Source: Candidatus Nealsonbacteria bacterium CG23_combo_of_CG06-09_8_20_14_all_40_13 (lineage in GTDB: Bacteria > Patescibacteriota > UBA1384 > UBA12157_A > GCA-002773005). Taken from it: 36,356 nt of DNA. This document shows positions 18,033 to 29,712 of this stretch, one piece after another; positions within the stretch are counted from its first letter, which is position 1, and the number at the start of each line of letters is the position of its first letter. The DNA lies in contig PCRM01000034.1 of assembly GCA_002771215.1 (NCBI GenBank), positions 1 to 36,356 on the forward strand, given 5' to 3'. A model generated the notes under the pieces. It worked only from the letters and a program-made list of their open reading frames with translations. It searched no databases and was not told the DNA's origin. Made by a program: the position numbers and the translations under genes.

Positions 18033-19661
18033 TCATTTGAAGCCATCGCCGATGTTTTCATAGGTGACTGTTTGAACCAACTCGCCATCAAGCCAAAATT
18101 TAATTCGCCAAGTGCCCGATACCCAGTCAAAATCAAAACCAGATGGTTTGAAGTATATCACTTCCGAAAATTGTTCGTCGTAGGAGTTAATATATTTTGA
18201 ATCATCCGTTGAACAACTCACACTACCGTCAGGACGAATAAAGACGGTTTTCCAAGTGTGAAGCCCGGGAGACAAATTGGCAAAATATAAATAAGCATAA
18301 ACGCAACTTTGCCAATAAAAACGATTAGTGTAATATTTCGGTCTGTCTTTTGGATAACTTTCATCCAGCCATTGATAAGGATCATTTTGCCCAAGAACAA
18401 TATTCACTGATGGTTCATTTGGCGCCCCCTCATTCTCATTCAAGCTTTCCTCCAGCGCTTTCCTCTCTTCCTCTGACATTTCATCAACGTAAATTTGGAT
18501 TGGTGAGGTAATCAGCTGGCCTGGGCTGTAGATGACATAGTTGTAAGCGCCGGGCTTTACTTGATCGGTGAAGGAGTATTCGACCTCACGAGTAACCAAG
18601 GGTATGACTGGAATGGTTCTGCGCGAATCAGGCACTTCAACGCCATCGCGGTACAAAACAATGGTCTTGGAATCATTAATTGGTCGCGGATAGACCAGAC
18701 GGAAATTAAAATCTACCTTTTGGTAGACGGTATTGATGCTTGCCTCATCGGTGCCAATTTGATAGGATAGTCCTTCCAATTGTCCTTCCCAAATTGAGGC
18801 GTAAGTATTTCCGCGAGAAATTGCCCAAGTCAAAAAGCCAGTAGCCAATTTATCTGCGTTAATGAAAGTAAAATAACCATCAGTGTCTACCCCATGACTG
18901 TCGTTGCCGCAGGTTACCCCGACAAGAAGGTTATTTTGGAGAAATTTCATATACAAATCGAGGTCTTTTTGTTCGTCAGAGCTGCCATTGAATGTTTCAA
19001 TAGTAGCGACGGGTGCAAACTCAGGGTAACTCTCGACCAACTCTTCCGGATTAGTCAATATTTTTTCTTTATACTTATCAAAATCAAAAGGCGGATTCCA
19101 CAAGGAAGGATGGGCTAAAACAATCACCGGGATATAATCTTTGGAAAAATCAAAATCCACAGAGGACTCTAAAGCTTTCGCCCGTTTAGCAACTTGATAT
19201 GAAAACATAATCTCATCGTAGCCGGCTTCCGGCAAGTACCAGTATTTACTATTTTCCCCTTGCTCCTTATCCGCAGCCAATACTAAAGCATGACACTTTA
19301 ACGAAGTATCTTTAAGGGGAAATTCGAAACCACCAATCATTAGCGGTGAACCCTTGCCAGAAAGCCAGTAGCAGCGTGAGATATAATCGTCGTAAGGATT
19401 ATTATTGTCATGAAGATGACCTTTGGCCACGCCATGCCAGCCAACCCCTTGCCCAAAACAATCAGCGTGTTCGGTCATAAAAATAAACTTCACATTATGC
19501 TTTTGAGCACCTTGCCAAATCGAATCAAGGTTATAAGTTCCGTCAGAATATTTGGAGTGAAAATGGACGATGCCTTTGAACCACTCCGCCGATGCCGCCT
19601 TTGACAGCACACCCACTAGTACCAATACGCCAAATACAACCAAAACTACTCTTTTCTTCAA
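18033..19661 (-). CDS. Secreted PHP-domain metallohydrolase with C-terminal Ig-like domains
   Basis: Signal peptide, HFHSKYSDG, TEH, AHP, ETFN and GNDSH motifs; C-terminal beta-rich GTWRIKFWLDG region. Confidence 0.8.
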   Translation of the reverse strand: MKKRVVLVVFGVLVLVGVLSKAASAEWFKGIVHFHSKYSDGTYNLDSIWQGAQKHNVKFIFMTEHADCFGQGVGWHGVAKGHLHDNNNPYDDYISRCYWLSGKGSPLMIGGFEFPLKDTSLKCHALVLAADKEQGENSKYWYLPEAGYDEIMFSYQVAKRAKALESSVDFDFSKDYIPVIVLAHPSLWNPPFDFDKYKEKILTNPEELVESYPEFAPVATIETFNGSSDEQKDLDLYMKFLQNNLLVGVTCGNDSHGVDTDGYFTFINADKLATGFLTWAISRGNTYASIWEGQLEGLSYQIGTDEASINTVYQKVDFNFRLVYPRPINDSKTIVLYRDGVEVPDSRRTIPVIPLVTREVEYSFTDQVKPGAYNYVIYSPGQLITSPIQIYVDEMSEEERKALEESLNENEGAPNEPSVNIVLGQNDPYQWLDESYPKDRPKYYTNRFYWQSCVYAYLYFANLSPGLHTWKTVFIRPDGSVSCSTDDSKYINSYDEQFSEVIYFKPSGFDFDWVSGTWRIKFWLDGELVQTVTYENIGDGFK

Positions 19662-19703: not shown

Positions 19704-20819
19704 CTACTTTGTTTTCTTCACCTTCTTTTTTATTTTAGTTTTAACCTTCGCCTGGGACAGCGTTATTTTATGACTACTTAAGTCAACTGATTCAATTTGG
19801 AAATCATATTGTTCGTCAAGCTGAAAAATTTCGCTTGGTTCTTTAATGCCATTGCCCATTTTTTCCAAAGGACAAAGAGCGTCTAAGCTTTCATCAATTT
19901 TCACAAACACGCCAAAAGATGTTAATTTGGTTACTTCTCCAGAAACCTTATCGCCAATTTTATATTTGGCCATTTTTTTCGCCCAAGGATCGGGCAAAAG
20001 ACGTTTGATTGACAGAAAAACCCTGCCTTTTTCAACTCCGATAATCATCACTTCAATTTCTTGCCCCACTTTGAACATATTTCTCAAATTAGATACTTTT
20101 TCCCAGGCAATTTCCGAAATATGCACTAAACCTTCAAATTCGCCTAAATTGATAAAAAGGCCAAAATCGGCGATGCCAGAAATAATCCCCTTTATGACAG
20201 TGTTAATTTTTAGTTGTTGGACTTTCTCGCTCTGCGTTTGCAAGGTTGCTTCTTTTTCAGAAAAAATCAATTTATTGGAACGTTTGTTATATGACAAAAT
20301 TTTTACTTGCAAGGTTTGGTTAAGCAATCCAGACAGCCGGCTGATAATTTCACCCTCTGAATGGGCGCCGCGCGGAAAGTGGCTGTAGGCAAGTTGGGAA
20401 ACTGGAGTGAATCCTTCCAATCCGCCGTAATCTACCACTAAGCCCCCGCGGGTAATTTTGGTCACATAAACACTAACCGGCTGACCTTCCTTGAATTTTT
20501 CTTCCAAAGTTCTAAAAACTCGTTCTCTATCTGCCCGGCGCAAAGAAAGCACCACATTGCCCTCATTATTTTCCATTGATAAAACGTAAGCCAAAACTTT
20601 ATCACCCTCTTTCATCTCTGGCACTAAAGTTGAAAATTCTCTCTGCGGAATAACCCCCATGGTCAAACCCGCCACATCCACTAAAATTTTGTTTCTGGAA
20701 ATATCCAAAATTTTTACTTCAATAACATCGCCTCCGCGAAAAGGGATTAAAGAAGGACCCATCTCTTCTACCAGTTGGGCCATGGATGTGTTATCTACTT
20801 GTTTGGTTGTTTTTTTCAT
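19704..20819 (-). CDS. rpsA: 30S ribosomal protein S1 (four S1 domains)
   Basis: Repeated S1 motifs: GFTPVSQL, DFGLFI..EGLVHISEI, FGVFV. Confidence 0.9.
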   Translation of the reverse strand: MKKTTKQVDNTSMAQLVEEMGPSLIPFRGGDVIEVKILDISRNKILVDVAGLTMGVIPQREFSTLVPEMKEGDKVLAYVLSMENNEGNVVLSLRRADRERVFRTLEEKFKEGQPVSVYVTKITRGGLVVDYGGLEGFTPVSQLAYSHFPRGAHSEGEIISRLSGLLNQTLQVKILSYNKRSNKLIFSEKEATLQTQSEKVQQLKINTVIKGIISGIADFGLFINLGEFEGLVHISEIAWEKVSNLRNMFKVGQEIEVMIIGVEKGRVFLSIKRLLPDPWAKKMAKYKIGDKVSGEVTKLTSFGVFVKIDESLDALCPLEKMGNGIKEPSEIFQLDEQYDFQIESVDLSSHKITLSQAKVKTKIKKKVKKTK

Positions 20820-20834
20820 TTTTTTTCTTAATTT

Positions 20835-21260
20835 TTACTTTTTAGGTAAACTCCTCGACTGCGCTCGGGGCAGGTATTTTTCAAAACGTTGTCTTTGATT
20901 GAAATCTTGTTTTTCTTTTTTAAAGTTAAAAATCAGATATTTCAAAATGAAAATCAGCCAAACGATAAAAACTAAAAACAAAATCTCAAAAAGGAAACGC
21001 ATGGACAAATAGGGAATTGCCTGCCAGTGAAAAAAGGTCAGCGCCAGACCAAATCCGCCTGTCCATAAAAGCAAGCTAAAAATTGAAGATTTTAATTTTT
21101 CAAGGTAAGGTTTTCCTTGGGTTTTTAAAAAAATTGCGACCGTTACGGCTGACAATACCATCGCAGAAAAAATTATAACTGAATACCAAAAAAAAGTAAA
21201 TGTTTGCGGCTGATAATTGAAAATAAAACTGGGCTGAATAAGCTTTTTAAAATCTATCAT
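20835..21260 (-). CDS. Three-TM membrane protein, hypothetical
   Basis: Three hydrophobic segments, IPYLSMRF and EKYLP motifs; REP inserted near the C-terminus. Confidence 0.8.
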   Translation of the reverse strand: MIDFKKLIQPSFIFNYQPQTFTFFWYSVIIFSAMVLSAVTVAIFLKTQGKPYLEKLKSSIFSLLLWTGGFGLALTFFHWQAIPYLSMRFLFEILFLVFIVWLIFILKYLIFNFKKEKQDFNQRQRFEKYLPRAQSRSLPKK

Positions 21261-21316
21261 TTTTATCTAATGACTAGTGACTGTTGACTAATTGACCCGG
21301 CGCGAAGCGCCGAAGG

Positions 21317-21643
21317 TGCCTAGGGTCAGAATCGAACTGACGACACCATGATTTTCCAATTAATCGTTTCTTCTCTCAATATAAACTTAGTTTACACCGA
21401 GTAAAACGAGGTGGACTATCTCATCTCCGACGTAACGTCGGAGTTGGGCGCTAATATAAGATTATTGTTGGGACTCACTTATTAGTCTCTACACCTTCTC
21501 TGATACCACAGCCCATCAGAGCTTGGCTCGGGATTGTTCGACATTTTGTCGAAGTTTCCCCGAATTCACCCAATTTTCATCCCCGCCTTGCGACGGGACG
21601 GACCGAAAACCAGTCATGTGCTCTACCACTGAGCTACCTAGGC
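21317..21643 (-). tRNA. tRNA-Phe(GAA), split by an intron (exons 21643-21612 and 21356-21317)
   Basis: Spliced: GCCTAGG TA GCTCAGTGGTAGAGC A CATGA CT|GAA AA TCATG GTGTC GTCAG TTCGATT CTGAC CCTAGGC A. Confidence 0.93.
21357..21611 (-). ncRNA. Group I intron (255 nt, ORF-less) inserted after U33
   Basis: Exon ends in U and intron ends in G; IGS TTTTC-GGTC pairs with the 5' exon GACT (U.G wobble) and the 3' exon GAAAA; P AATTCGGGAAAC, Q AATCCCGAGC, R GTAGAGACTA, S GAGATAGTCC; P3 TTGGGTG/CGCCCAA. Confidence 0.93.
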
Positions 21644-21646
21644 ATA

Positions 21647-22327
21647 TTATATTTTTAAAGATAAACCCTTAATCCAACCTTTTAATTTTCTCATCGATTC
21701 TACTTTTTTTATATATATATGTAATGTTCCATATAGTAAAGTGTTATGTTTTCTTTTTTTCTTACTTGATTTACTTATAACAATCTGTGGTCTATAAAAT
21801 TGTTGTTTTTTAGCTTTAAGAATTTTTGCCCAAAATTTTTGCGTTTTTTCTTTTTCAATATTTGGATGTAAATGAATTCGGAATTTGAAAACAGAATTAT
21901 CTATTTTACAAATTTCTATGAAGAACCTCATAATTAACTGAATTATTTTAGGATCTGAATTGCTAAATCTTACAGCACTTTTTTCTTTTTTACCACCTTC
22001 TGCCCAAAATAATCCTAAACCTATCCAAAATAATCTCTCCTTATTTAATTTCGGAATTTCTTTCGCATAACTATTAATTAATTTATTATGTTCAACTTTT
22101 AAAATTTGCGATCTTTTTTTGTTAAAATTCGTAATATTTCTTGCCCAAATAATTTTGGTTTTTAAAATGTTCCGTTTTTTAATAACTCTTGATAAAGGAT
22201 AATTTTTGAACCAAGTTGACAATGTACTCTTCGGAATATTTAAAAGTGTATTTATTTGATTATAACTTTTTCCTTCTTTCCTTAAAAACCAAGCTTGTTT
22301 TCTTTTATTCGAACTGACAATACTCAT
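21647..22327 (-). CDS. HTH plus LAGLIDADG-like putative homing endonuclease, free-standing
   Basis: N-terminal LRKEGKSYNQI..IPKSTLSTW HTH; GLFWAEGGK motif followed by VRFSNSDP; markedly more AT-rich than neighbours. Confidence 0.7.
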   Translation of the reverse strand: MSIVSSNKRKQAWFLRKEGKSYNQINTLLNIPKSTLSTWFKNYPLSRVIKKRNILKTKIIWARNITNFNKKRSQILKVEHNKLINSYAKEIPKLNKERLFWIGLGLFWAEGGKKEKSAVRFSNSDPKIIQLIMRFFIEICKIDNSVFKFRIHLHPNIEKEKTQKFWAKILKAKKQQFYRPQIVISKSSKKKRKHNTLLYGTLHIYIKKVESMRKLKGWIKGLSLKI

Positions 22328-22336
22328 CTTGTTTTA

Positions 22337-22365
22337 ATTATCTCATTGGTTCATATTATTGTCAA
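22337..22365 (-). promoter_or_regulatory. Promoter of the endonuclease-like gene (nearly leaderless mRNA)
   Basis: TTGACA-17-GATAAT, about 10 bp before ATG 22327. Confidence 0.55.
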
Positions 22366-22374
22366 AGTTCAGTA

Positions 22375-22449
22375 TGGTGGGCGACGTAGGAGTCGAACCT
22401 ACAACCTACTGGATGTAAACCAGTCGCTCTGCCATTGAGCCAGTCGCCC
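22375..22449 (-). tRNA. tRNA-Val(TAC)
   Basis: GGGCGAC acceptor, ACTGG-TT TAC AT-CCAGT anticodon arm, GGTTCGACTCC, CCA. Confidence 0.96.
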
Positions 22450-28473: not shown

Positions 28474-28722
28474 ATGTTTACCGTACAACATCTTCGGCGA
28501 ATAAGCGCCGCCGCCCAAAGATGTTCTGGTGGCGCCGCAAGAGTTGAAGTTTGTCGGCTACCGGTCAGAGATGACCAATGTGAGTTTTGCGAAGGACCAT
28601 TGGCCAAAATTACACTTTTTTATCTTTCTTCAGACGAACATCAACATCATTATGATGATGTTGATGAAAGAATCACTTGCGCCGACACTAGCTGCCTCGC
28701 CTTTATGAATGACAATGTCTAA
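28474..28722 (+). CDS. Small Cys/His-rich hypothetical protein (82 aa)
   Basis: AGGAGG RBS, promoter TTGACA-17-TATTAT at 28376, terminator at 28734-28762; CEFC and CADTSC. Confidence 0.65.
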   Translation: MFTVQHLRRISAAAQRCSGGAARVEVCRLPVRDDQCEFCEGPLAKITLFYLSSDEHQHHYDDVDERITCADTSCLAFMNDNV

Positions 28723-29154: not shown

Positions 29155-29712
29155 TTATTCGCCGCTTGGCGTTTTTTTCAGTTTGTCGGTGTTCTTGGAG
29201 ATAGTGACGCGAAGATCGGCGGGCCGAACTTCAAAGAATTCATCCTGCTTGATCTTGAAACCAGCTACCCCTATTGCCACCTCTTGCTCTCTCAGGATTG
29301 CTTGTTTGTCAACTTCTTCCTTGGTCCTGACAAAACGCTCCAATCCCATCTGTTTCAAGGCGGCAATCACTAATTTTTCAGCCTTGGTGAGTACCACCGA
29401 GGCCGGTTTTAGCCGCCACCGAAACCAGCCGGTCGGCAACTCAACAGTTTTTTTCTTTCCTCTGTCGGTCAGCTCATCACGGTGACTTGCGGCGAAAGCA
29501 TAAAGTACTTCAACCAGTCGCGAAAGCTCCTGTTCGTGCGGTAATGACTGACCTGTCGCTTGCGCCTTTAGCTGTTCAACTTGGTTATTAAAAACAAGTT
29601 GAATTTCATCAATTTCCCTTTTCTTCTCGCCAATTTGCCGCACAACTTTGGTAGCCTGCTCAAGTGTCTGCGGTATCTCGATAACTTCCCGCTTAAATGT
29701 CGGTTTCTGCAC
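29155..29712 (-). CDS. Mu Gam-like host-nuclease inhibitor (DNA end-binding)
   Basis: Coiled-coil N-half, KKTVELPTG.FRWR, FVRTKEEVDKQAI and GFKIKQDEFFEV motifs; AGGAG RBS. Confidence 0.85.
   Translation of the reverse strand: MQKPTFKREVIEIPQTLEQATKVVRQIGEKKREIDEIQLVFNNQVEQLKAQATGQSLPHEQELSRLVEVLYAFAASHRDELTDRGKKKTVELPTGWFRWRLKPASVVLTKAEKLVIAALKQMGLERFVRTKEEVDKQAILREQEVAIGVAGFKIKQDEFFEVRPADLRVTISKNTDKLKKTPSGE

Follow-up and report, generated by a model that had tools for sequence, protein, structure and literature searches.

A tRNA-Phe(GAA) gene at positions 21643-21317 on the minus strand of the stretch of DNA analysed here (the window, 36,356 nucleotides) is interrupted after U33 by a group I intron of 255 nt that carries no open reading frame. 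We put the probability that this is a real group I intron, one whose removal is needed to make tRNA-Phe, at roughly 0.9. The host is a small-genome bacterium with relatives among the CPR/Patescibacteria, and a genome that seemingly has no tRNA-Phe does have one, which default tRNA and Rfam runs overlook. The gene would thereby be one more case of essential tRNA genes in tiny-genome bacteria depending on ribozyme splicing. Its three parts are as follows.

21612..21643, minus strand: tRNA-Phe exon 1, tRNA positions 1-33, 32 nt, ending in GACU33
21357..21611, minus strand: group I intron, 255 nt, with the terminal omega-G at 21357
21317..21356, minus strand: tRNA-Phe exon 2, 40 nt, starting GAAAAU, with the anticodon GAA at 21356-21354 and the discriminator A at 21317

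The intron was recognized by two programs. In its intron-tolerant mode ARAGORN reports tRNA-Phe(gaa) i(33,255) at this position, and when the exons are joined in silico it finds a clean 74-nt tRNA-Phe cloverleaf with a GAA anticodon. A covariance search with RF00028, proposed as a check in the preliminary description of this DNA, gives 50.4 bits against a gathering score of 50, a thin margin over the cut-off (E 6.7e-12 in a 551-nt search of 21200-21750), and a whole-genome Rfam search returns the identical match with E 1.8e-12. That description had placed a group I intron in tRNA-Phe(GAA) at 33/34, with an anticodon arm restored by splicing; its coordinates prove exact, and the RF00028 match, the ARAGORN call and the spliced cloverleaf all agree with it. 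It had also predicted that standard annotation would miss the gene, as indeed happens: default ARAGORN lists six tRNAs in the window with the split tRNA-Phe not among them, and an Rfam run at gathering threshold on the whole window reports tRNAs only and no RF00028 intron. On its own strand the intron has no listed reading frame that reaches 40 aa. The CCA end is incompletely encoded at the 3' end of the gene, where CC is followed by T, and many relatives differ in this respect. Directly 3' of the tRNA's ACC lies a G+C-rich hairpin, CGGCGC-UUC-GCGCCG (21298-21312, minus strand), with no run of U after it.

All of the core elements named in the preliminary description (P1 with its U.G, P10, P3, P4/P6, P7 as GACTA/TAGTC, and the terminal G) are present. 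Read along the transcript, and with co-variation as seen in the comparisons described below, the intron is built from these elements.

21601..21615, minus strand: P1, exon GACU plus intron G1 (21615-21611) with CGGUC (21605-21601); U.G at the 5' splice site
21605-21609, minus strand: P10 guide UUUUC in the P1 loop, pairing with the start of exon 2, GAAAA (21356-21352)
21582..21597, minus strand: P2 hairpin with a GCAA (GNRA-type) loop; 6/6 pairs change on both sides
21567..21573, minus strand: 5' strand of P3, UUGGGUG with CGCCCAA; paired in 99% of cells, with changes on both sides in 3 pairs
21528..21563, minus strand: P4 (21563-21558 with 21533-21528) and the enclosed P5 hairpin (21553-21537)
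21493..21527, minus strand: P6 / P6a hairpin, whose loop opens with GGG; 7/7 P6a pairs change on both sides
21483..21487, minus strand: 5' strand of P7, GACUA, with UAGUC at 21414-21418; invariant in 63-65 of 65 sequences
21456..21482, minus strand: extra "P7.1-like" hairpin, 27 nt, between P7 and P3', with the conserved loop GUGAGUCCCAACAAUAAU
21444..21450, minus strand: 3' strand of P3, pairing with 21567-21573
21425..21443, minus strand: P8 hairpin; 7/8 pairs change on both sides
21414..21418, minus strand: 3' strand of P7, UAGUC, pairing with GACUA at 21483-21487
21364..21409, minus strand: P9-like hairpin in the 3' tail, 46 nt, -16 kcal/mol, z = -3.55

The minimum free energy fold of the precursor (z = -5.9) reproduces the tRNA's acceptor, D and T arms together with P1, P2, P3, P4, P5 and P8. 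Across 65 aligned sequences P4 is almost invariant, and P5 co-varies yet aligns poorly, with 79% of cells paired. In the extra hairpin between P7 and P3' both partners vary in 5/5 stem pairs, pairing is kept in 100% of cells, and the loop is nearly invariant. This hairpin is seen as well in one aligned tRNA-Thr intron, and is missing from one tRNA-Met and one tRNA-Asn intron. The P9-like hairpin of the 3' tail is peculiar to this copy among the class-mates aligned (alignment A1). In 17 of the 20 aligned class-mates the stretch between P7' and the omega-G measures about 10 nt, at most about 20, and these introns therefore have no P9. The extra hairpin may replace the absent P9 clamp. A candidate loop-loop contact of three pairs was also noted, between the GGG of the P6a loop (21512-21514) and the CCC of the extra hairpin's loop (21469-21471); variants that preserve the pairing (GAG/CUC, GGC/GCC and GGU/GCC) occur in only a handful of the 65 sequences and give a hint, only that, of a real contact.

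The class to which the genome belongs comprises 162 genomes, while its family and order contain the window's own genome alone. A homologous intron interrupts tRNA-Phe in 21 of the 162, spread over 11 families, and all 21 share the U33|G34 boundary and the terminal G, which recurs in 3/3 tRNA-Thr homologues. With the uninterrupted tRNA-Phe of a relative as query, 130 of the 162 genomes match, and among the matches listed, all but ten rows, about 115 genomes, by hand count, are unbroken across 33/34, the weakest rows being possibly other tRNAs. Outside the class, species-representative genomes were searched with an exact P4-P5-P4' core pattern, which hit at least 120 loci, most of those listed belonging, judged by record title, to CPR/Patescibacteria. 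ARAGORN finds a split tRNA-Phe(gaa) at 47 of the 120 pattern loci listed, a split tRNA-Thr(tgt) at 20, a split tRNA-Asn(gtt) at 14, other split tRNAs at 12 and no split tRNA at 27. Once 5 listed loci that duplicate DNA already counted in the class are allowed for, a split tRNA-Phe is present in no fewer than 44 additional species. The preliminary description asked that novelty for tRNA-Phe be checked, and the answer goes against it: the same intron sits at the same site in these 21 class genomes and additional species.

Related group I introns occur in many other tRNA genes of the class (loci L021, L024, L028 and L059-L104), with Thr(UGU), Met(CAU), Asn(GUU), Ser(UGA), Leu(CAA), His and Tyr among the split tRNAs that ARAGORN calls. 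One pattern match, in Zymomonas mobilis (L145), lies outside any tRNA and was dropped as a tRNA intron; it shares the P4-P5-P4' core and resembles the intron in its P1 sequence, in an apparently protein-coding context. Outside the window, on the minus strand of contig C38 of the window's own genome, three sub-threshold RF00028 matches of 27.7-43.2 bits (18931-19089, 19807-20065 and 28480-28621) lie beside a tRNA-Ile(GAU)/tRNA-Ala(UGC) pair; these are presumably introns in rRNA genes.

Pairing in the core is far beyond chance. A structure-blind MAFFT alignment was made of 15 of the 21 class sequences, leaving out six with large insertions or poor 3' alignment, and 93.8% of its pair cells are paired, compared with 78.1% in shuffles and 34-49% with slid partners; both partners vary in 34 of the 62 pairs. 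A covariance model built from these 15 sequences was applied to 70 loci, namely the 21 in the class and 49 of the 120 pattern matches, picked for an ARAGORN call of Phe or close to it, and all 70 chosen loci match at 107-247 bits. They yield 65 distinct sequences in which 94.6% of pair cells are paired (75.8% in shuffles, 34-47% with slid partners) and 40 of the 61 pairs show changes on both sides, figures that are biased toward the model structure because this alignment (A4) was fitted to it.

The strongest sign comes from the helices that join intron to exon, where the guides keep step with the exon sequences. The splice-site U.G is kept in 65/65 distinct sequences, and an A-U pair of P1 becomes C-G in 21 of them and G-C in 2. 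Where the anticodon stem reads GCGCC in place of AUGAC, P1 switches from A-U to C-G. In P10 a U-A pair becomes C-G in 3 of 15 sequences, those with G37-type exons, so that with an exon 2 beginning GAAGA the partner switches from U to C. Such changes in step with the anticodon stem and position 37 are expected only if the guide must keep recognizing the exons.

These elements suggest how the gene would be expressed, by what we take to be the standard group I route. It would be transcribed as a precursor of 327 nt, in which G30-A31-C32-U33 would quit the anticodon stem and pair with the intron guide GGUC to form P1. The U33.G pair would mark the 5' splice site, where a free guanosine held in the P7 pocket would attack. 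The start of exon 2, G34-A38, would then pair with the adjacent guide UUUUC as P10, the terminal G (21357) would displace the free guanosine, and ligation of the exons would leave the anticodon loop CU-GAA-AA. We infer that splicing of this kind occurs, and that it would be catalysed by the RNA without a protein helper.

A possible partner of the intron is the gene immediately upstream, called p226 here, whose surroundings are these.

21647..22327, minus strand: p226, an ORF of 226 aa between tRNA-Val and tRNA-Phe, with its stop codon 3 nt before the 5' end of tRNA-Phe
22337..22365, minus strand: promoter-like site TTGACA-17-GATAAT between tRNA-Val and p226, judged by its 11/12 consensus matches alone
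22375..22449, minus strand: tRNA-Val(UAC), which adjoins tRNA-Phe in many relatives without p226

Six unsplit loci were fetched, and the gap from tRNA-Val to tRNA-Phe measures 1 and 50 nt in two of them and 333 nt in a third. No leftover half-tRNA was seen by eye in the 47-nt spacer upstream of p226. The predicted protein opens with a helix-turn-helix (HTH) region that gives weak Pfam HTH_23 and HTH_SB matches, and it has a central motif GLGLFWAEGG...NSDP. In 9 family members scanned, the Pfam matches with E up to 10 were all to HTH models and none to a LAGLIDADG model; NCBIfam likewise returned HTH matches only, a sequence profile against the PDB weak HTH rows only, and Foldseek against the PDB no match at E <= 0.001. 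In the AF2 model (pLDDT 81.6), residues 95-226 align with I-DmoI (Z 5.8), WhiA (4.9), I-Vdi141I (4.8) and E-DreI (4.5), amid unrelated rows of similar Z, and an Atlas structure search places p226 at TM 0.89 to a phage cluster auto-named LAGLIDADG protein. On these grounds p226 probably consists of an HTH head and a LAGLIDADG-like core.

Members of the p226 family are found in 63 of the 162 class genomes, often in several copies, and all 41 places examined adjoin tRNA genes. At 36 of the 41 a same-strand tRNA lies within 260 nt downstream, and it is split in only one of these cases. Of the 21 split tRNA-Phe genes, 10 have a member of the tRNA-Phe branch of the family directly beside them. A second family copy in the window's own genome, at C25:4919-5524 on the plus strand, has 35% identity and precedes a 78-nt tRNA-Ile(UAU) at C25:5566-5643 by about 40-140 nt. 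No HNH nuclease was found beside tRNA-Phe in the window or among 6 ORFs from 6 other split loci. The ORFs beside the window's other tRNA genes are ordinary host genes (DHH, NTP_transferase, SBP_bac_5), and an ORF of 185 aa near tRNA-Leu(CAG), at 29155-29712 on the minus strand, matches phage Mu Gam (PF07352) with 114.8 bits. In another genome of the class an ORF of 217 aa (L016:2039-2692, minus strand) just upstream of tRNA-Val, beside a split tRNA-Phe, matches Pfam LAGLIDADG_3 with 30.3 bits against a cut-off of 22.5, and belongs to a second, different family of tRNA-associated nucleases.

Unlikely, but the strongest of the competing explanations, is that the intron is removed only with protein help, whether from the LAGLIDADG-like upstream protein acting as a maturase or from a general RNA chaperone. 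Certain LAGLIDADG proteins are maturases, a gene of that likeness adjoins nearly half of the split tRNA-Phe genes (the 10 of 21 given above), and P9 is absent in 17/20 aligned class-mates. With P9 missing from most relatives and the 3' tail unusual here, the self-sufficiency of the ribozyme is uncertain. Against a dedicated maturase, a p226 homologue is absent within about 1.5 kb at 11 of the 21 split tRNA-Phe loci, and of the 36 family members followed closely by a tRNA on the same strand, 35 stand before an unsplit one. The RNA core is complete, moreover, and the conserved extra hairpin could stand in for the missing clamp, which keeps splicing by the RNA alone the preferred reading.

How far the cell depends on this gene bears on a much less probable explanation, under which the locus is a dead, intron-disrupted tRNA pseudogene and the functional tRNA-Phe is encoded in the 5-6% of the genome that the assembly lacks. 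ARAGORN finds 34 tRNAs and one tmRNA on the 46 contigs of the assembly, which is 94.44% complete. A search for another tRNA-Phe, suggested in the preliminary description, turned up none on these contigs with the intron option on or off. By the same program tRNA-Tyr, tRNA-Trp, tRNA-Thr(UGU) and tRNA-Thr(GGU) are also absent from the 46 contigs, which speaks for a pseudogene. One relative examined has these four in a single cluster; a stretch bearing tRNA genes is therefore probably missing from the assembly, and another tRNA-Phe, without an intron, may lie outside it. A dead gene would sit badly, however, with exons and a ribozyme core that are intact, with compensatory changes that keep the helices paired over 65 sequences, and with guide sequences that track the exons in an arrangement shared by 21 class-mates. 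The intron is far better read as part of a working gene.

No more credible is a shift of the intron by one base in the 3' direction, to 34/35 (...CUG|G...G|AAAA). A G flanks both junctions, so either cut would yield an identical mature tRNA, and in relatives whose exon 2 starts GAA the ambiguity reaches 36/37. A boundary at 34/35 would, however, put G rather than U at position -1, and the U.G at 33 is invariant in 65/65 sequences with the P1 pairing in register with it; only at 33/34 do all 21 class genes have both U-1 and G-omega. The boundary is accordingly set at 33/34 by the invariant U.G and by P1 and P10, which co-vary with the anticodon arm.

Least probable of all is an assembly chimera that misjoined intron-like sequence between two tRNA halves, for which nothing speaks beyond the division of the genome into 46 contigs, and which independent contigs of other runs and dozens of other genomes with the same arrangement contradict. 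One of those contigs, from another sample's run (X9, record 25), covers 20800-22103 with 3 differences and no gap. Joints of 21358>21611 in the reads of three runs were considered as an intron-less allele and rejected, the shorter side having 28 letters and the likeness being 85%; they are attributed to other organisms, present in greater abundance, whose tRNA-Phe genes have no interruption.

The tRNA-Phe intron, then, is genuine but ordinary: its class is common, and group I introns of bacterial tRNAs are already catalogued. The main text of Williams (2020; bioRxiv 10.1101/2020.01.27.920355) describes four classical classes (Leu.3Ug, Arg.5Ug, fMet.2Ug and Ile2.5Ug), the corresponding introns being listed as IC3 in a database, and an extension to 21 tRNA/site classes with 5292 introns in total; it gives 0.49 split tRNA genes per genome for metagenomic assemblies of unnamed phyla. 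Introns in CPR tRNA genes have also been reported already. Full-text searches together with the main text of Williams yielded no passage naming a group I intron in tRNA-Phe. The intron described here fits the catalogued anticodon-loop type, with site 2 (after U33), one of 8 sites, U-1 and G-omega. A 2025 preprint reportedly treats group I intron sites in the tRNA genes of Patescibacteria.

The closest counterparts are the introns in other tRNA-Phe(GAA) genes of CPR/Patescibacteria, which share the tRNA, the site after U33, U-1, G-omega and the core; this copy differs from them in the 46-nt P9-like hairpin of its 3' end, missing in the aligned class-mates. The classical cyanobacterial fMet.2Ug intron likewise lies in the anticodon loop at 33/34 with U-1 and G-omega, a likeness by site and not by sequence, in a different tRNA and a different lineage. 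The IC3 ribozymes of Azoarcus tRNA-Ile and Anabaena tRNA-Leu are also small and ORF-less, and their P1 and P10 use the anticodon arm as well. They are inserted at 36/37 and 34/35, respectively, as against 33/34 here, and the present family stands apart from them in its conserved 27-nt hairpin between P7 and P3' and in the want of a P9 in most aligned class-mates. We take the J6/7-P7 sequence of the intron to resemble that of the Azoarcus and Anabaena ribozymes, and the extra hairpin and missing P9 to be departures from IC3 architecture.

The more interesting lead is the p226-type family itself, lodged beside tRNA genes, and the link that it seems to have with the intron. It is tentatively possible, though doubtful, that intron and p226 make up a two-part selfish unit specialised on tRNA-Phe and spread by collaborative homing. 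In such a scheme the putative p226 nuclease would cut unsplit tRNA-Phe genes at or near the DNA of the anticodon loop, the intron would protect its carrier by interrupting that cut site, and the intron would be copied together with the nuclease gene during repair. The idea comes from position: the tRNA-Phe branch of p226 abuts 10 of the 21 split genes and only 1 (G107) of the roughly 115 genomes with unsplit tRNA-Phe, the latter figure coming from a hand cross-check of the matches listed, with related genomes that are not independent and so inflate the difference between split and unsplit, and with 11 split loci that have no p226.

Two known systems offer a precedent. SegB of phage T4 is a free-standing homing endonuclease encoded in a tRNA cluster, and the "collaborative homing" of cyanophage psbA pairs a nuclease with an ORF-less intron. 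As in both, p226 lies outside the intron, abuts its presumed target, and is patchy in distribution and present in multiple copies, although its own role as a nuclease is only putative. Unlike either, p226 would combine an HTH head with a LAGLIDADG-like core, and most members of its family stand beside tRNA genes that are unsplit.
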